Positions 671 through 13,955 of a stretch of DNA of 13,955 bases are shown here, in pieces. Position 1 is the first letter of the stretch, and every line of letters begins with the position of its first letter. The notes beneath the pieces were generated by a model that was not told the DNA's origin, did no database searches, and worked only from the letters and a program-made list of their open reading frames with translations. Made by a program: the position numbers and the translations under genes. Source of the stretch: Escherichia coli (GTDB taxonomy: Bacteria > Pseudomonadota > Gammaproteobacteria > Enterobacterales > Enterobacteriaceae); the NCBI RefSeq assembly GCF_003334765.1, contig NZ_QOWT01000055.1; one strand, written 5' to 3'.

Positions 671-3067
671 ATGCACGAAAAGAACATCGCCCTGCTTTGT
701 GATGAAGCCGACCGACTTTTGCAACTGAACATTAATCTGCTCCGGCAAATGGTTGAGGAGCCAGATGTGTTATCTGACAGTAAGAACGAAAACAGACTGC
801 TTTTTGATAAACAGAAAGCACTGAAAAGAATTGAGGAGCTGGAGGGCGAACAAATCAAAACCGCCCGCAGGGAGATGGTGCTGGCTGTTGTCGGCACGAT
901 GAAAGCAGGCAAATCAACCACCATCAATGCCATTGTGGGGCAGGAAATTCTGCCTAACCGTAACCGCCCCATGACCTCTGTACCGACGCTCATCCGCCAC
1001 GTTCCCGGAAAAACTGAGCCGGTTCTCCATCTGGAACATATTCAGCCTGTCCGCAATTTATTAATCACACTGCAGGAAAAACTCGCCACCCCGGCAGGAC
1101 AGCAGGTCGCACAGACCCTGCAGCAAACCGGGGATACCCGCGAACTGCTGGATATTCTGACGGATGATGGCTGGCTCAAAAATGAATACCACGGGGAGGA
1201 GGAAATCTTTACCGGACTGGCATCGTTAAACGATCTGGTTCGTCTTGCTGCGGCAATGGGGACTGAATTTCCTTTTGATGAATACGCAGAAGTGCAGAAA
1301 CTGCCGGTGATCGACGTGGAATTCAGCCATCTGGTGGGGATGGATGCATGCCAGGGAACACTCACACTGCTGGATACCCCCGGCCCTAATGAGGCCGGAC
1401 AACCGCAGATGGAAGTGATGATGCGGGATCAACTGCAGAAAGCCTCTGCGGTTCTGGCTGTGATGGATTACACCCAGATGAACTCAAAAGCGGATGAAGA
1501 CGTCCGTAAAGAGCTTAATGCCATTGCTGACGTATCAGCCGGCCGCCTGTTTGTACTGGTCAATAAATTTGATGAGAAAGACCGCAATGGCGATGGGGCA
1601 GATGCCGTACGCCAGAAAGTTCCGGCAATGCTGAACAGCGATGTGCTGCCCGCCTCCCGCGTTTATCCCGGATCCTCACGCCAGGCATACCTGGCTAACC
1701 GTGCGCTTCATGAGTTACGGAAAAACGGAACCCTTCCTGTTGATGAAGCCTGGGTCGATGATTTTATCAGAGGTGCCTTCGGTTGCATGAAAAAAGAATA
1801 CGTCTGTAAAGACAGTGAACTGGCAACTGAAGGGGCGACAGACCTGTGGGAAGGCTCACTTATCGATCAACTGATAACGGAAGTCATACAGAGCTCACAT
1901 TCCAGAGCTGCGGCACTGGCGGTTGACTCTGCCGCCGCAAAACTGATGCAGAATGCAGAAAATATCAGTGAATACCTGTTGTTACGCCATCAGGGGCTAC
2001 AGCAAAGCATTCAGTCACTGCAGTCGCATATCACCAGCCTGCTTGCGGATATCCGGGAAATCGCGGACTGTCAGGAGCAGATGACCACTGATGTCAGAAT
2101 GGCCATGGAGGAGATCGATACTAAAACCCGGGAATTACTGACGGGGGTCTGCACCTCACTGGAAGAGGAGCTGAATGACTATTTCAGAAGCGGTAAACGC
2201 AAAGAACAGCAAATGCTGGAGGAAGAAGACGCAGAACAACGAAGGTCTCAGTCCGGATTATGGGGGAAAATTTCTCAATGGTCCGGTATCAACAACCAGG
2301 GCCGGGAGGATTACAGGAAACGAGATTTTGCCCCGGACAGCCCCGAAATAAAATTCAGTGATCGCAGGGAAGCCCTTGAACTGATGACGCAAATCGAATC
2401 GACCGTGACCAGCCTGCACCGTGAGGCTGAAGCACAGTTCCGGCCTGAGCTGGAGAAAATCGTCAGCGGGATTGAAACAGGTTTTCGTGGCACGGCCCTG
2501 TACGCCACAGAAAACATTGCCGGTCGCATCAATGCCCGCCTGGAGGATGAGGGCTTTACCGTAAAAATCAGTTTTCCGGCAGTCAGCCAGTTACAGACCC
2601 GGCTCGCGGTAAAAATAAATCTGAGTGCGCTTATGGAGGAAAGAACGGAGACCGTCACCCGTCGCCGTCGGCAGAGTGGCGTATGGGGAACCGTTTGTCG
2701 ATGGTTTGGCACCAGTGACCTGGGCTGGGAAAACTATGACGAGGATGTGAGTCGCAGCGTGATCAATATCAACAAGGTCAGAGAGGAAGTTATGTCACTG
2801 ACCCGGGCATATTTCGGGGAGCTGCAGGCATCCATTGAGCAGGATATTAACCAGCCCGTCCGCCAGGAAATCGATGCCTTTTTCTGCGCATTCAGGGAGA
2901 AAGTTGAACAACTGCGTAACACGCTGATTCAGAGCTCTGAGGATCATAAACGCGATCAGCAGGCGCAGGAACGACTTACCGGGCGACTTCAGGCATTAAA
3001 TGAAAGGGTTCCTGAGCTCATTACTGACAGTAAGGCGCTGAGGGAAGAGCTGGAGACAATGCTGTGA
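671..3067 (+). CDS. Bacterial dynamin-like GTPase, paralogue of CrfC/RdcA (YjdA), 798 aa
   Basis: Long ORF with an AGGAAGG Shine-Dalgarno at 656-662. G1 GTMKAGKST is at aa 75-83 (nt 893-919), G3 DTPG at aa 235-238 and G4 NKFD at aa 298-301. The N-terminal GTPase region (LAVVGTMKAGKSTTINAIVGQEILPNRNRPMT...) closely resembles E. coli CrfC as I remember it. A long helical stalk and a C-terminal coiled coil follow. Confidence 0.9.
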   Translation: MHEKNIALLCDEADRLLQLNINLLRQMVEEPDVLSDSKNENRLLFDKQKALKRIEELEGEQIKTARREMVLAVVGTMKAGKSTTINAIVGQEILPNRNRPMTSVPTLIRHVPGKTEPVLHLEHIQPVRNLLITLQEKLATPAGQQVAQTLQQTGDTRELLDILTDDGWLKNEYHGEEEIFTGLASLNDLVRLAAAMGTEFPFDEYAEVQKLPVIDVEFSHLVGMDACQGTLTLLDTPGPNEAGQPQMEVMMRDQLQKASAVLAVMDYTQMNSKADEDVRKELNAIADVSAGRLFVLVNKFDEKDRNGDGADAVRQKVPAMLNSDVLPASRVYPGSSRQAYLANRALHELRKNGTLPVDEAWVDDFIRGAFGCMKKEYVCKDSELATEGATDLWEGSLIDQLITEVIQSSHSRAAALAVDSAAAKLMQNAENISEYLLLRHQGLQQSIQSLQSHITSLLADIREIADCQEQMTTDVRMAMEEIDTKTRELLTGVCTSLEEELNDYFRSGKRKEQQMLEEEDAEQRRSQSGLWGKISQWSGINNQGREDYRKRDFAPDSPEIKFSDRREALELMTQIESTVTSLHREAEAQFRPELEKIVSGIETGFRGTALYATENIAGRINARLEDEGFTVKISFPAVSQLQTRLAVKINLSALMEERTETVTRRRRQSGVWGTVCRWFGTSDLGWENYDEDVSRSVININKVREEVMSLTRAYFGELQASIEQDINQPVRQEIDAFFCAFREKVEQLRNTLIQSSEDHKRDQQAQERLTGRLQALNERVPELITDSKALREELETML

Positions 3068-4467
3068 CTTCACCATTTATTCAACAAATTGCTGATAACC
3101 GGGTATGTCAGGTACTCACCTGTCTTCCTGAAAAATTTGTGGTTGATTTCGCAAACGGAATCGATGTTGCACAGGAGCATATCCGCACGGCCGGAGAGCG
3201 CACGTTCTTCCGGCGTTTAAAAGAGGGGCTGACCGGCGAAGGCGCTGCACGGCAGAATGCCATCAATGCGTCGCTTGCACAGGGCGTTGAGGCGTCCCTG
3301 CGCTGGCTGACGGAGATGACAACGTCACTTGCCACCACAAACTACGCGATTACCCAGGTAAACGACAGGGTCAGTTCACTGGTCAGTGATACAGCCAGGC
3401 TGGCGCATTATTCCGCAGATACGCGGGAGCAGTTACTCACCCTGGCCGATCAGGTTCACCATAAACTGAATCATCTTGAAGAAAAACTCCACCGTGTTGA
3501 CCAGGTTCAGCGGGCGCAGTTACATCTTGAGCAGATATTCTCATGGTGGAGCGCCGGGCGATATGCGTCATTTTCCCCTGCCGGACGTTGTTATGTGGCA
3601 CTTGAAGAGCTTCGCTGGGGCGCGTTTGGTGATGTGATACGTCAGGGCGAAACAGGCCAGGTTAACCAGCTACTGGATATTCTCAGACATAAAGCATTAA
3701 CGCAGATGGCACAGGAGAGTGGCGGTAGTGCAACCGTGCGTCTGAACACTCTGGACTGGCTTGGTGGTCAGGGCCGGGAGCAGGCAGATAACGAGTGGCA
3801 TGACGCGATTAACTGGCTGGGAGACTGGTGCAGTGAAGAGCAGCATCCGGTGACCCGTGTGCGCGACCCGGGCCGCCGGGGATACACAAAACACATGCTG
3901 CGTCTGCGGCGGGCCGGAGAGATAAACGGAGAACATGTCCCTGAAATTATTCTGCTCAACTCTCATGACGGTACCTCCAGCTACCAGATGCTGCCGGGTT
4001 ACTTCAGGTTCGTCTGCCAGAACGGGTGCGTCTGTGGCCAGTCTCTGGGGGAAGTGCGTGTTCCACACCGGGGAAATGTAGTGGAGAAAGTTATCGAAGG
4101 GGCTTACGAGGTGGTGGGCGTGTTTGACCGGATAGAGGAGAAGCGTGATGCCATGCAGTCGCTGGTCCTGCCGCCACCGGCACGCCAGGCGCTGGCACAG
4201 GCGGCACTGACTTACCGTTATGGTGACGAACATCAGCCCGTCACCACCGCCGACATTCTGACGCCGCGACGCCGGGAGGATTACGGTAAGGACCTGTGGA
4301 GCGCATATCAGACCATCCAGGAGAATATGCTGAAAGGCGGGATTTCCGGTCGCAGTGCAAAAGGAAAACGTATCCATACCCGGGCCATTCACAGCATTGA
4401 TACCGACATTAAGCTCAATCGCGCATTGTGGGTGATGGCAGAAACGATGCTGGAGAGCCTGCGCTGA
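3064..4467 (+). CDS. Chimeric ORF: RdcB/YjcZ-like dynamin-partner domain (aa 1-263) fused in frame to the C-terminal ~204 aa of a DUF932 protein (YfjQ/YafZ family)
   Basis: The GTG start overlaps the upstream stop as GTGA (3064-3067), implying translational coupling. From nt ~3853 (TRVRDPGRRGYTKHMLRLRRAGE...WVMAETMLESLR) the translation matches the YfjQ/YafZ family from about residue 70 to the end, as I recall it. The N-terminal part is coiled-coil rich (RQNAINASL..., YSADTREQL...) like the YjcZ partner encoded next to crfC. Confidence 0.8.
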   Translation: MTSPFIQQIADNRVCQVLTCLPEKFVVDFANGIDVAQEHIRTAGERTFFRRLKEGLTGEGAARQNAINASLAQGVEASLRWLTEMTTSLATTNYAITQVNDRVSSLVSDTARLAHYSADTREQLLTLADQVHHKLNHLEEKLHRVDQVQRAQLHLEQIFSWWSAGRYASFSPAGRCYVALEELRWGAFGDVIRQGETGQVNQLLDILRHKALTQMAQESGGSATVRLNTLDWLGGQGREQADNEWHDAINWLGDWCSEEQHPVTRVRDPGRRGYTKHMLRLRRAGEINGEHVPEIILLNSHDGTSSYQMLPGYFRFVCQNGCVCGQSLGEVRVPHRGNVVEKVIEGAYEVVGVFDRIEEKRDAMQSLVLPPPARQALAQAALTYRYGDEHQPVTTADILTPRRREDYGKDLWSAYQTIQENMLKGGISGRSAKGKRIHTRAIHSIDTDIKLNRALWVMAETMLESLR

Positions 4468-10146: not shown

Positions 10147-11319
10147 TCAGGCCTTATGGTGGAAATAATCACTCAGGCGAGAAAACATGCTGCCTTCCCC
10201 GACAGATTCCAGGGTAACCAGCGGCCAGTGCGCCACCTGTTTATCACGGTCGTAAAGTTCAATTTCCCCTACCCGCTGATGGGCGCTAATTGGCGCGGTG
10301 AGCTCTTTACCATTAAGGGTATATTTGGCTTTGATATGTGGAATTTCGGCTTTCGGTAGCACCATCCAGAACTCTTGTTCCGTTCCCAGGGCGATATTTT
10401 CTTTATCACCATACCAGATGCGTTCCGTACCGACCTTTTTCCTACGGTGCAAAATTTGCACCGTAGTAAAGTTTTGTTGCCCCCAACGCAGTAATTTTTT
10501 TGCCTCTTCCTCACGACCTTTTGCGCTGTCAGCACCCATTACCACTGCAATGAGGCGACGCTGCCCGTCTACAGCCGAAGCAATAAGATTAAACCCGGCA
10601 CCAGAAGTATGGCCCGTTTTCAGGCCGTCAACATTCATGGTCTTATCCCACAATAACCCGTTACGGTTTTGCTGGGTGATACCGTTCCAGGTGAGGCTTT
10701 TCTCACTGTACATATGATAAAACTCGGGCTCGCCGTGGATGATAGCGCGAGAAAGCACGGCTAAATCATAAGCCGAGCTATGCTGGCCAGGTGCATCCAG
10801 ACCATGCACTGTTTCAAAATGCGTATCCTTGAGATGCAGCTTCTCGGCATAGTTGTTCATCATTTCAACAAACTGCCGTTGCCCACCGGCAATATAGTCA
10901 GCCAGAGCAACACACGCGTCATTTCCGGAATCCACAATTAAACCTCGGCTTAAATCACGTACCGATACGCGATCGCCCTCTTTCAAAAACATCAGTGAAG
11001 AACCGACAAACACCGGATTATCTTTCGCCCACGCATCACGCCCCACGGTGACAATATCGTCTGGCGTAATGCGATGACTATCGATAGCGCGATCCACGAC
11101 ATAGCCCGTCATCAGCTTTGTCAGGCTGGCGGGATTGCGCTGTTGATGCTCATTACCCGCGGTGAGAATCTGACCGGTGGTGTAATCCATCAATACCCAG
11201 GACTCGGCATGAATCTCTGGAGGCTGAGGTGAAAAAGGAATGTTTTCCGCCGCAAAACCAGACGATAAATTAAAAACGAACAAAGAAGCAGCAATAATAA
11301 GACGGCGTTTCAACAGCAA
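10147..11319 (-). CDS. dacD: D-alanyl-D-alanine carboxypeptidase DacD (PBP6b)
   Basis: The ORF has a signal peptide (MLLKRRLIIAASLFVFNLSSGFA) and the SxxK (SLTK), SxN (SGND) and KTG (KTGHT) motifs. The ORF-track start is a TTG at 11319. The sequence matches K-12 DacD as recalled. Confidence 0.93.
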   Translation of the reverse strand: MLLKRRLIIAASLFVFNLSSGFAAENIPFSPQPPEIHAESWVLMDYTTGQILTAGNEHQQRNPASLTKLMTGYVVDRAIDSHRITPDDIVTVGRDAWAKDNPVFVGSSLMFLKEGDRVSVRDLSRGLIVDSGNDACVALADYIAGGQRQFVEMMNNYAEKLHLKDTHFETVHGLDAPGQHSSAYDLAVLSRAIIHGEPEFYHMYSEKSLTWNGITQQNRNGLLWDKTMNVDGLKTGHTSGAGFNLIASAVDGQRRLIAVVMGADSAKGREEEAKKLLRWGQQNFTTVQILHRRKKVGTERIWYGDKENIALGTEQEFWMVLPKAEIPHIKAKYTLNGKELTAPISAHQRVGEIELYDRDKQVAHWPLVTLESVGEGSMFSRLSDYFHHKA

Positions 11320-11521
11320 ACCCTCAGGTGTTTCAAATAGCTGTTCTTTTTACGGAAATACTTATGAACTGGCTGGAATAAAGTGCAAGAAAATGTGACT
11401 ACTACCTCATTTTTATCTGACATGATCTGTTGCCACTCGCTGCCAAATTGTCGCGCTAAAGCTGATTAGCACGGTGATATTTGATACTCTGGCAGACAGC
11501 AGAAATAACGGATTTAACCTA

Positions 11522-11570
11522 ATGATGAATGACGGTAAGCAACAATCTACCTTTTTGTTTCACGATTACG
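11522..11570 (+). pseudogene. sbcB: 5' stump of sbcB (exonuclease I), truncated after codon 16 by an insertion
   Basis: ATGATGAATGACGGTAAGCAACAATCTACCTTTTTGTTTCACGATTACG encodes MMNDGKQQSTFLFHDY, the N-terminus of K-12 SbcB. The expected continuation ETFG... is replaced by AQYP and a TGA at 11582-11584. The divergent position relative to dacD is as in K-12. Confidence 0.85.
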
Positions 11571-11624
11571 CGCAATACCCCTGAGAACCGCCATGAACAA
11601 GGGTTTCATGATTTGTGATTTTAG

Positions 11625-11648
11625 TTTGGTACGCAATTTGGTACGCAA
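11625..11648. repeat. Tandem direct repeat 2 x TTTGGTACGCAA
   Basis: Exact 12-bp units at 11625-11636 and 11637-11648, about 55 bp inside the foreign DNA from the sbcB junction. Confidence 0.9.
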
Positions 11649-11887
11649 CACTATTTTCACTTCAGCGGGTAGTCATCAAACTCACCATAACGAGCATCGT
11701 TGATGATGTATGCGATCACCACAAATATCACATCTGGACTAGTTCCGTCTTCATGCGCAGGTATCTGTTCACGCCTCCCTTTCTGCAAATCCTAAAGATG
11801 AGATTTTGGGGTTTTGGGATATCTTTTTCTCCTCAGTTCTCTATCCATTCTACAAAGCAGTAATGAACCATCACTATGTGAAAGTGA

Positions 11888-11959
11888 GGCATCCGCTACA
11901 TTAAGCGCAGAGAAATGATGCAGTGGTGGGCGGACTGGCTTGATGAAAAGGTGGAGTGA
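11888..11959 (+). pseudogene. 3' remnant of a P4-type (IntA/IntS-like) tyrosine integrase
   Basis: The in-frame translation GIRYIKRREMMQWWADWLDEKVE* carries the RR.MMQ.WADYLD C-terminal signature of P4-family integrases. An in-frame TGA lies immediately upstream (11885-11887). No catalytic domain is present. Confidence 0.6.
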
Positions 11960-12411
11960 ACCACCTTAGCTATCGAATGACACAAAGCCTTGTAATCCAG
12001 TGCAAAGTCTTGTGTGCCTCAGTTTTGTCTAAGCGTTCTACTGAAACATAGTAAAATCGATAACGGCTGGAGATCATTCAATATCCGCACTATTGACTCC
12101 CCTCCAATAAACCGTGTAACGTACACCGTTTATAAGACAACCAAACAATAATAGAGCGAGTGAAATCATCAGTCTCAAATACCATTTATTGACGCAATAC
12201 TATCCAGTTCTGAACTAAATGACATAATTCGGTAATTAAATTAATGCATCGACATACCTTATAGATACGCCCCAATAATATAATGCTAATCCTCTTTGAA
12301 TAGAAAACGTTCAATACTCCTCACTAAATAGCATAGTATTTATATCTTCCCTTACAAAAAAAATTAAGGCATAATAATAAGCTTCCTTTAACGCTAGATA
12401 TTGAGGTTTGT

Positions 12412-12540
12412 ATGTATCGCAGCATCGCAGCATTTAACACATTTTGCTTTTCATTGGTATTTATTTCATTAGCAAATGATATATATTACCAATTAAAACA
12501 CTCGTCATCTCTCAATACATATATTTCCTATGCATTTTGA
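12412..12540 (+). CDS. 42-codon ORF with one hydrophobic segment, in the same frame as the downstream 359-aa gene (possible severed N-terminus)
   Basis: GAGG at 12403-12406 lies 5 nt before the ATG. The translation is MYRSIAAFNTFCFSLVFISLANDIYYQLKHSSSLNTYISYAF*, with TGA at 12538-12540. Only three sense codons (GGG ATT GCC) separate that stop from the ATG at 12550, in the same reading frame. Confidence 0.35.
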   Translation: MYRSIAAFNTFCFSLVFISLANDIYYQLKHSSSLNTYISYAF

Positions 12541-12549
12541 GGGATTGCC

Positions 12550-13629
12550 ATGACATACAATACTATATTCAAAATATACATCTCAATTTTCATTTCTGTT
12601 ATTGTCACTATAATAGCCATATCCGGTATAACATTCCTGGGGGACAACTGGATTATTCCAGACACATATCATCTATTTAATACTGCAAAATATGATACCA
12701 CATTTTCACTCAGCGATATTTATTCCCAGCATAAAACATCTGTTTTATTTCTCTTTATAAACAAAGTGCTCTATAGCATAGGGTTATATTCTTTCTGTAT
12801 CGCGAACACAGCAATGATTATCTATGCTTTTTTCAAACATCACGAAGACCGTAGATTTTGTTTTGTGTTTTTGGTTTTGTCACCTCTATTTTTCATTAAT
12901 ATACCGTTACCATCCAAAGATATAATGGTGACATTTCTTTTTTGCATATGGGTATATGCAGTTTACTCTGAGGCAAGCCTGACAAAAACAATCCTGCTGT
13001 CTTTAATCATCCTATTAGTTAGAGATGGCTTTGGGATAATTTTAATTGCCACTTCAATTATCTTAAAACAAAAGATAATATATAAAGCACCAATACTACT
13101 GATTATAATAGCAACTCTCATCGCATCTTTAATATCGGATGTTTTGCCTAACTATGCAAATGACTTTTTTCTGTTCCAGAGAGTAATTGATATAGCCAAT
13201 GAATATAATAGTTCAAGTTATATTCTTCGTATATTTGGGAATGTAACAAATTTCTCATCACGCAACCCATTGATTACTGATAAGTCCACATTAAACATTA
13301 CATTTATGTGCTATACAATCACGGGAGTTACTATATTGAGTACATTCCTTCTTTCAATTAAAGCAATACGTTCAAATTATAAAAGTGATGTCAGAATATC
13401 ATTTTGTTATTTTTTAATTACCATTGCTTTTTCTATTTCACCACTTATTCAAGCAAGATACATGGCTCCGTTAATTTTAATGCCGACATTTTATAAGTGT
13501 ATTTCAAAAAAAGATGTCTTTATTTGCTATATGGCAAGCATATTTATCTCAATAATATTATCATTATTATATGTATATTTAGGTGTTTACCCTGAAAAAG
13601 CACCAGTGGAAAACTTTACAATAAATTAA
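12550..13629 (+). CDS. Polytopic inner-membrane protein (about 10-12 predicted TM segments), function unknown; Wzy/EpsG-like or GT-C/GtrC-like surface-polysaccharide enzyme is a hypothesis
   Basis: An uninterrupted 359-codon ORF in very AT-rich DNA, where random stops are frequent. GAGGGA at 12539-12544 lies 5 nt before the ATG. Hydrophobic stretches alternate with short charged loops, plus two larger loops (aa ~31-64 and ~200-250). No acyltransferase-3 N-terminal motif was seen. Confidence 0.8.
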   Translation: MTYNTIFKIYISIFISVIVTIIAISGITFLGDNWIIPDTYHLFNTAKYDTTFSLSDIYSQHKTSVLFLFINKVLYSIGLYSFCIANTAMIIYAFFKHHEDRRFCFVFLVLSPLFFINIPLPSKDIMVTFLFCIWVYAVYSEASLTKTILLSLIILLVRDGFGIILIATSIILKQKIIYKAPILLIIIATLIASLISDVLPNYANDFFLFQRVIDIANEYNSSSYILRIFGNVTNFSSRNPLITDKSTLNITFMCYTITGVTILSTFLLSIKAIRSNYKSDVRISFCYFLITIAFSISPLIQARYMAPLILMPTFYKCISKKDVFICYMASIFISIILSLLYVYLGVYPEKAPVENFTIN

Positions 13630-13747: not shown

Positions 13748-13955
13748 TTATACTTCATAAAGGGCAGGCCAGATGACATCAGGCGCGGTGCTGGTATCTG
13801 TTGCCGCCACCGCGTCAATGTAATCCAGCACAGCGTTAAGCCGGGTGGTTTCTGCCTGCGTCAGCTTCCGCCCGGCCTGTAATTTCAGCTGAATCAGACT
13901 GATGGAAGCCATTGCAGCATCAATCAGCGACTGGCGCTTTACTTCTGCCGCGTCT
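13748..13955 (-). CDS. Phage tail fibre assembly protein (Tfa family), C-terminal 68 aa (5' end outside the window)
   Basis: The minus-strand translation is DAAEVKRQSLIDAAMASISLIQLKLQAGRKLTQAETTRLNAVLDYIDAVAATDTSTAPDVIWPALYEV*, with stop at 13750-13748. The ...L..W..Y...L..VDTSTAPDI.WP ending is the hallmark of TfaE/TfaQ-type chaperones. Confidence 0.8.
   Translation of the reverse strand, partial: DAAEVKRQSLIDAAMASISLIQLKLQAGRKLTQAETTRLNAVLDYIDAVAATDTSTAPDVIWPALYEV

Follow-up and report, generated by a model that had tools for sequence, protein, structure and literature searches.

In a 13,955-nucleotide (nt) stretch of the Escherichia coli genome (contig NZ_QOWT01000055.1; the whole stretch is referred to below as the window), a 359-amino-acid (aa) open reading frame (ORF) for a predicted membrane glycosyltransferase is directly preceded by a 42-codon leader ORF that lies in the same frame and ends at a TGA. 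The question raised by this arrangement is whether the TGA has split a once longer gene, or whether the leader is a separate element placed before an intact one. The evidence assembled here indicates that the 359-aa ORF at 12550-13629 is very probably a complete gene and not a split one. The leader, in turn, was revealed to contain an 8-nt tandem repeat that was overlooked in the first reading of the window. We propose, at what we consider even chances, that the locus is a slipped-strand contingency locus, in which the repeat gates a complete prophage glycosyltransferase gene via translational coupling from the leader.

The features of the locus are summarized in Table 1. Direct reading confirmed the layout described in the earlier note, namely the ATG at 12412 with its GAGG Shine-Dalgarno (SD) sequence, the TGA at 12538-12540, the in-frame ATG at 12550, and the embedding of the TGA in GAGGGA, the last two bases (G and A) of the stop codon being the first two of the main-gene SD. 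The leader translates as MYRSIAAFNTFCFSLVFISLANDIYYQLKHSSSLNTYISYAF, and three sense codons (GIA) lie between its TGA and the ATG that opens the 359-aa ORF. The combined size, put earlier at about 404 codons, was approximately correct, the exact count being 405 sense positions (42 + TGA + 3 + 359), a trivial discrepancy.

Table 1. Positions of the leader, repeat, gene and neighbouring features in the window
Feature	Coordinates	Strand	Remarks
Prophage-derived DNA upstream of leader	11902..12411	+	blastn of 11300-12560 vs L014, L013 and L023
Promoter-like site CTTACA-16 nt-AATAAT (candidate)	12351..12378	+	Consensus scan; ~25 nt upstream of leader SD
Leader SD, GAGG	12403..12406	+	Read directly; 5-nt spacer to ATG 12412-12414
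Leader ORF, 42 codons plus TGA 12538-12540	12412..12540	+	Phase 0, contracted allele
8-nt repeat, ATCGCAGC x2.25 (read as CAGCATCG in other alleles)	12416..12433	+	Tandem Repeats Finder (TRF); 1 nt after leader ATG
Phase-1 leader stop, TAA	12435..12437	+	112 nt before main ATG; L023; kept in houtenae allele
Phase-2 leader stop, TAG	12470..12472	+	77 nt before main ATG; JCH8249 (L010), L014/17, L013
Phase-0 leader stop, TGA	12538..12540		Inside main SD, 9 nt from main ATG; window, L015/18, L016, L027, L026, L009
Predicted RNA hairpin	12504..12548	+	12507-12515 (AUCUCUCAA) pairs with 12537-12545 (UUGAGGGAU)
Main-gene SD, GAGGGA	12539..12544	+	Read directly; overlaps leader stop; invariant across alleles
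GT-C-fold polytopic membrane glycosyltransferase gene (predicted), uncharacterised family, complete	12550..13629	+	GC content 0.29-0.33
Convergent tail-fibre assembly gene, 3' part	13748..13955	-	Runs off window end; RefSeq annotation of identical DNA; Caudo_TAP Pfam matches in all related loci

When the fused 405-aa sequence was used as a query against 5.8 billion proteins, the matches obtained (359, 364, 363, 356, and 365 aa) were all confined to the part downstream of 12550. Among the homologues, which showed 90, 60, 40, and 28% identity and were 356-365 aa long, a Met occupied the alignment column of 12550 in three of four cases, the fourth (P0004, 28%) beginning, as called, about 19 residues further in. 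In the DNA of the homologues, in-frame stops were found 0, 3, 26, or 40 codons upstream, and no leader-like sequence was seen upstream of the genes. Alignment across the TGA, which the earlier note had put forward as a check, revealed no sense codon in its place in any allele: the TGA was present in every one up to a nucleotide divergence of 11%, including the 90%-identical Salmonella houtenae and the 97%-identical S. Milwaukee alleles. Of the two observations that the same note regarded as decisive against a truncated gene, the lack of conservation of the upstream 42 codons was thus found, while the common start at 12550 was found in all of the aligned homologues except P0004. The ratio of nonsynonymous to synonymous substitution rates (omega, Nei-Gojobori) was 0.13-0.14 for the gene, corresponding to purifying selection, and 1.31 for the distal part of the leader, 34 codons beyond the repeat in which 10 nonsynonymous and 2 synonymous changes were counted. 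These values, together with the starts of the homologues, suggested that selection maintains an intact gene and leaves the leader peptide unconstrained. As far as the compared sequences tell, the upstream TGA is an original feature and not a nonsense mutation.

The 359-aa protein gave no match in Pfam, PHROGs, NCBIfam, or a PDB sequence-profile search, nothing significant in a BFVD fold search, no match by tblastn against 50,697 phage records, and only a distant Marinospirillum homologue in a genome-contig scan. A profile search of 1.84 billion representatives recovered 154 relatives, mostly of 355-440 aa, and Asp38, Arg303, and Tyr304 were invariant in 73 aligned family members. An AlphaFold2 model built with the family alignment (pLDDT 93, pTM 0.92), for which the sequence P0001, differing from the window product only at Y327H, was used, displayed both hallmarks of the GT-C class, namely a polytopic core fold and a conserved acidic residue in the first loop after the first transmembrane helix (TM1). 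The latter residue, Asp38 (in IPD), lies between model helices 3-25 and 37-49, on a membrane side that we infer. With TM1 at residues 3-25 and the Asp38 loop next, the protein would have the canonical GT-C start, and an added N-terminal TM helix would be expected to invert the topology.

The family members in the 26-28% identity range occur in polysaccharide gene clusters: in L004 the order is Wzx, DUF268, family member, and then methyltransferase; in L005 it is GT1, family member, and then Bac_transf; and in L007 it is GT1, GT10, a weak Wzx-like ORF, GT2, GT4, family member, ManC, and WbaP. The slot of the family member in these clusters is where a Wzy polymerase is expected, a setting that holds for the distant homologues and not for the prophage copies, and no Wzy Pfam model matches. 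Wzy-type polymerases are GT-C enzymes (PMC10920833). On this basis, we assign the protein to the GT-C membrane glycosyltransferases of surface polysaccharide (O-antigen), its most likely role being that of a polymerase or a branching enzyme. The earlier comparison with Wzy/GtrC-type enzymes is accordingly consistent with the GT-C fold and the genomic slot. In the 60%-identical homologue locus (L002), the gene (735-1829) lies downstream of an Acyl_transf_3 fragment, and an unrelated 40-codon upstream ORF (607-729) has its TGA stop 5 nt ahead of the GTG that starts the gene, which may be coincidental or represent a leader-ORF arrangement of independent origin. As for the annotation, the product called in complete genomes by the Prokaryotic Genome Annotation Pipeline (PGAP; RefSeq WP_139499480.1) is limited to 271 aa, with an internal ATG at 12814 as its start (12814-13629), which removes TM1 and the invariant Asp38. 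Other NCBI records give 359 aa for the gene, and the homologues and the AlphaFold2 model also place its start at 12550.

The repeat tract in the leader is hypervariable between strains. The window-type tract of 2.25 copies is also present in L031, a prophage still with its integrase, and 3.25 copies were found in E. coli JCH8249 (L010), the sole variant among 74 otherwise identical complete genomes. Higher copy numbers were 7.25 (L014 and L017), 9.25 (L015 and L018), 12.25 (L016), 13.4 (S. houtenae, L026), 15.25 (S. enterica, L027, in a CPS-53-like prophage adjoining mlaA-yfdC), about 24.9 (L013), 31.75 (S. Milwaukee, L009), and 63.75 (S. Milwaukee, L023). The tract of L009 consisted of 31.8 perfect copies (100% match) within a leader ORF of 122 codons ending at the same TGA. 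The E. coli prophages L014-L018, with 7, 9, or 12 copies, were only 1-3 single-nucleotide polymorphisms apart over about 4 kb. The two S. Milwaukee alleles, L009 (5630-5883) and L023 (CP030175.1, 9378-9887), were 100% identical over 13 kb and differed by exactly 32 units, which could stem from genuine change in culture or from the assemblies. In JCH8249 (L010, 9160-9190), TATCGCAG is duplicated, adding 8 nt, or exactly one unit, and leaving a leader ORF of 22 codons with the TAG as its stop; thus, even a 2-copy tract can slip.

Five short-read contigs end at the tract. Contigs L019, L020, and L024 (gene at 148) and L021 and L022 (gene at 117) begin inside or just past it, and the label 'partial' is attached to many of the NCBI proteins in the 90% cluster. 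Since the tract breaks assemblies, long-tract alleles are probably under-counted. As in contingency loci, the short unit is perfectly repeated head to tail, and near-identical strains differ by whole units; near-invariant flanks, whole-unit copy change, and contig breaks are together characteristic of slipped-strand instability. The cassette of repeat, leader, and gene moves as a whole between different prophages: between the window and L023, the leader was 96.6% and the gene 97.3% identical, and the flanks 74-77%. An IMG/VR scan for the repeat returned only a Salmonella Milwaukee contig, and a metagenome scan for the leader returned one contig, whose allele matched that of the window. The octamer also appears elsewhere, as (CAGCATCG)n encoding QHRSIAAS repeats in short predicted ORFs of unrelated metagenomic contigs (L028, 4001-4228; L029; L030, 4001-4303). 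These ORFs were set aside as candidate relatives of the locus, their neighbours (RNase T2, AhpC, and AI-2E transporter) not being glycan-related.

The repeat unit is stop-free in every frame, so that the copy number and the T3/T4 run after the tract set the leader frame, and since 8 is not a multiple of three, each unit gained or lost shifts that frame. All three leader phases were found in natural alleles, and the leader ORF in other alleles ranged from 22 to 173 codons according to repeat number and phase. The window has TTT after the tract (12433-12435) and all long-tract alleles have TTTT; it is this 1-nt shorter T-run that places the 2.25-copy allele in phase 0, and TTTT would put it out of phase. 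Only in phase 0 does the leader end as coupling would demand, with the TGA at 12538-12540 overlapping the SD at 12539-12544, 9 nt from the ATG at 12550. In addition, a hairpin with a local free energy of -11.8 kcal/mol was predicted to sequester both the leader TGA and the main SD, the predicted pairing probability of the SD being about 1.0 in three diverged alleles.

Given these features, we propose the following mechanism. Slippage of the 8-nt unit would shift the leader frame and thereby gate the gene by translational coupling. In phase 0, ribosomes translating the leader would melt the hairpin, terminate on the main SD, and reach the main start, whereas in phases 1 and 2 they would stop before the hairpin and the main ribosome-binding site would stay sequestered. 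The repeat number modulo 3 would then set the glycosyltransferase ON or OFF in a heritable and reversible manner, making the cassette a mobile contingency locus. The window allele, contracted to 2.25 copies, would be essentially locked in phase 0 and is predicted to be ON. Because the repeat sits in a separate leader ORF and not in the enzyme ORF, any effect on the enzyme would have to be indirect, by coupling, rather than by enzyme frameshift. That the repeat controls expression of the gene at all seems to us slightly favoured, whereas control specifically by translational coupling is a tentative assignment, falling somewhat short of probable. Termination-reinitiation at the TGA, one of the possibilities in the earlier note, is therefore retained in its general direction, as a putative frame-dependent coupling switch, and abandoned as a device for producing two isoforms.

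Several observations weigh against the proposed switch. The link from leader phase to expression of the main gene is one that we infer from the sequence. In 76 of 300 shuffled-leader controls (25%), the SD was sequestered equally well, and the SD-sequestering hairpin was accordingly rejected as strong evidence; no covariation was seen in the hairpin. No significant excess of phase 0 was seen, this phase occurring in four of the eight alleles ascertained independently of phase, a count that leaves out two alleles found with the phase-0 peptide query. The unconstrained leader peptide fits a regulatory upstream ORF (uORF) and an untranslated leader equally. Moreover, 73 of the 74 genomes are identical at the 2.25-copy tract, so the window allele can hardly phase-vary; the copy numbers of the long tracts depend on assembly quality and may be inaccurate; and the 60%-identical homologue locus L002 has no tandem repeat.

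The main rival explanation accepts the hypervariable repeat and dispenses with the leader ORF: the tract would be an untranslated or promoter-proximal length rheostat, acting on transcription or mRNA, or a neutral variable-number tandem repeat (VNTR), and the in-frame ORF a by-product of a stop-free unit and AT-rich sequence. Upstream 7-bp repeats modulate expression by length in Haemophilus hmw1A and hmw2A. This reading would account for the neutral evolution of the leader peptide, for a hairpin not above its shuffled control, and for the lack of phase enrichment, and 40-codon ORFs are common in this AT-rich DNA. When the 250 nt upstream were shuffled 20,000 times with mononucleotide composition kept, an ATG-initiated ORF of at least 40 codons ending at most 30 nt from the main ATG was obtained in 2.2% of the shuffles, and such an ORF together with an SD-like motif in only 0.055%, the criteria having been set post hoc. 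The latter value speaks for a translated leader, as does the good SD (GAGG, 5-nt spacer) with an ATG 1-4 nt before the tract (ATATTGAGGTTTRTATG), which is kept in all E. coli and Salmonella alleles while the bases flanking it upstream vary. Likewise, the phase-0 frame is still open despite 13 substitutions, the phase-2 stop reads TAA instead of TAG in the houtenae allele (11% diverged) and so is still a stop, and the layout mirrors that of neuO, with a VNTR directly after the start codon. As to the candidate promoter, both of its hexamers are kept in the Salmonella allele, and the count of promoter-like sites in the region was not above the shuffle expectation. We therefore consider an unused leader unlikely, if by no means negligible; the suggestion in the earlier note that the small ORF is fortuitous gains from the unconstrained peptide and the weak hairpin control, and it is not the reading that we favour.

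A second alternative holds that the leader codes for a small hydrophobic peptide with a function of its own, produced in phase 0 alone, for example an inhibitor of the host O-antigen polymerase, so that the peptide, or the peptide and the enzyme, would be phase-variable. Pseudomonas phage D3 encodes Iap upstream of wzy-beta. The phase-0 products have a common hydrophobic segment, FNT(F/Y)CF(S/L)LVFISL, directly upstream of the GT-C gene, and distant homologues of the gene occupy the expected Wzy position in Wzx/Wzy clusters. Such a hydrophobic stretch is, however, expected of any T-rich sequence. The omega of 1.31 over the distal leader codons against 0.13 for the gene, and an N-terminus varying from 0 to about 20 QHRSIAAS octapeptides, are also difficult to reconcile with a functional peptide, and the peptide had no match in Pfam, PHROGs, or NCBIfam, the search of the 5.8 billion proteins returning only alleles of this locus and unrelated repeat-encoded ORFs. 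These results render the peptide reading improbable.

The weakest alternative, a nonsense mutation (TGG or another codon to TGA) in an ancestral protein of about 404 aa with reinitiation at 12550, or UGA readthrough giving a longer isoform with an extra TM helix, can draw on the common frame of the phase-0 leader and the gene and on some distant family members that are 20-40 aa longer at the N-terminus, yet it is scarcely credible given that the closest homologues (90, 60, and 40% identity) begin at the same Met with stops upstream, that the TGA occurs in every allele, that the leader evolves neutrally, varies in length and is often out of frame, that the extra helix would presumably leave the loop with the invariant Asp38 facing the wrong membrane side, and that an Rfam scan matched no leader, riboswitch, selenocysteine insertion sequence (SECIS), or other RNA family.

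If the proposed slipped-strand switch is correct, the locus would be the second mobile contingency locus of enterobacterial prophages and one not described before, in which an 8-bp repeat toggles coupling onto an uncharacterised GT-C family and so provides sequence-based phase variation of surface polysaccharide in E. coli and Salmonella, on a cassette mobile between unrelated prophages and locked upon tract collapse; we advance this broader view only tentatively, as something less than an even bet. To our knowledge, E. coli and Salmonella are regarded as having very few natural cases of slipped-strand phase variation, of which neuO is the textbook example. The switch would introduce a new regulatory design, with the repeat in a leader ORF instead of the enzyme, would add an unannotated GT-C enzyme family to the serotype-conversion functions of prophages, and would have a bearing on serotyping, vaccine antigens, and phage receptor variability. 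From a practical point of view, the tract breaks short-read assemblies, RefSeq annotates the gene as a 271-aa fragment, and the small ORF should neither be merged with the gene nor called a pseudogene.

The window, part of the E. coli chromosome, opens with a CP4-44-type island; tmaR-yeeA-sbmC-dacD come next, and then follow the low-GC cargo, the convergent tail-fibre assembly gene, and a degraded prophage with an integrase adjoining sbcB at its end. The GC content of the leader and gene region is 0.29-0.33, versus about 0.5 in the rest of the window, and the cargo gene was found in only 74 of 5,426 complete E. coli genomes, all at an identity of at least 99%. Homology to the intact prophage alleles begins at about 11902, corresponding to the 3' end of their integrase gene. 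The segment 11900-12097 showed about 89% identity with unannotated int/att-end DNA of lambdoid and Stx-converting phages (mEp234, phage 2851, and Stx2 phage 1717), and this segment is likely, judging from that similarity, to be an attachment-site arm marking the prophage boundary next to dacD. In the intact E. coli prophages, the integrase is followed by the leader and gene and then, on the opposite strand, by tail-fibre assembly, collar fibre, and Mu gp48-like genes; the tail-fibre assembly gene at 13748-13955 marks the serotype-conversion cargo slot of the prophage. Neither gtrA nor gtrB was found between the int/att end and the tail-fibre assembly gene, in the gene calls of the related loci or the ORF list of the window. 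Elsewhere in the window, a perfect 12-nt direct duplication (TTTGGTACGCAA x2) is present at 11625-11648 in the dacD-prophage intergenic region. The 5' half contains a 798-aa ORF and an overlapping 467-aa ORF (671-4467 and on to about 7700); matching genomes annotate this half with dynamin family, RdcB family, patatin-like phospholipase, and CP4-44-type island genes, unrelated to the present finding.

Searches of the literature on the repeat sequence and on octanucleotide, repeat-based O-antigen, and uORF-coupled phase variation yielded no paper on this locus. The arrangement resembles classical translational coupling in that the upstream stop overlaps the downstream SD, 9 nt from the start, and that folding predicts pairing of the downstream ribosome-binding site with sequence of the upstream ORF. 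It differs in that the upstream frame would here be toggled by a mutable repeat and that the structure statistics are weak.

Phage O-antigen polymerases accompanied by a small inhibitor peptide occur in Pseudomonas phage D3 (iap-wzy-beta-oac) and Salmonella phage epsilon15. Like these, the present locus belongs to a converting prophage and has a small hydrophobic ORF directly before a polytopic GT-C-type gene, whose distant homologues stand in the Wzy position of Wzx/Wzy clusters; the 60% homologue adjoins an Acyl_transf_3 fragment. Here, in contrast, the small ORF is unconstrained (omega 1.3), has a repeat-encoded variable N-terminus, and is without homologues, and the polymerase role is putative.

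With the gtrABC operons of SfV-, SfX-, P22-, and CPS-53-type phages, the locus shares its position as low-GC cargo, with the integrase/att end on one side and a convergent tail-fibre assembly gene on the other, a slot that gtrABC fills in CPS-53/SfV-type converting phages, and its product is predicted to be a GT-C-fold polytopic membrane enzyme, like GtrC. The known Salmonella gtr operons are also phase-variable. Here, however, the gene stands without adjoining gtrA or gtrB, and the 359-aa protein matches no Pfam, PHROG, or NCBIfam model. Furthermore, the phase variation of gtr is epigenetic (Dam/OxyR) and not repeat-based; the known O-antigen phase variation in Salmonella (gtr and opvAB) is likewise described as epigenetic.

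By analogy, the closest precedent is neuO of prophage CUS-3, reportedly presented as a mobile contingency locus by Deszo and colleagues in 2005. In E. coli K1, neuO carries a 7-nt VNTR 2 nt after its start codon; the copy number ranges from 2 to 93, and the gene is ON only when this number is a multiple of three (PMC3046976). The units differ, being 8 nt (CAGCATCG) here and 7 nt (AAGACTC) in neuO, and the present repeat occupies a separate leader ORF whose TGA lies 9 nt before the enzyme start. Besides, the predicted product is a GT-C membrane glycosyltransferase here and a soluble O-acetyltransferase in neuO, and switching at the present locus is a proposal. In their design, nevertheless, the two are closely alike: both are prophage-borne genes that modify, or are predicted to modify, surface polysaccharide; both carry a perfect repeat with a unit not divisible by three, 1-4 nt after a start codon; their copy ranges are comparable (2-93 in neuO and 2-64 here); and in both, the downstream frame is set by the copy number modulo 3, with a periodic peptide encoded in all frames.

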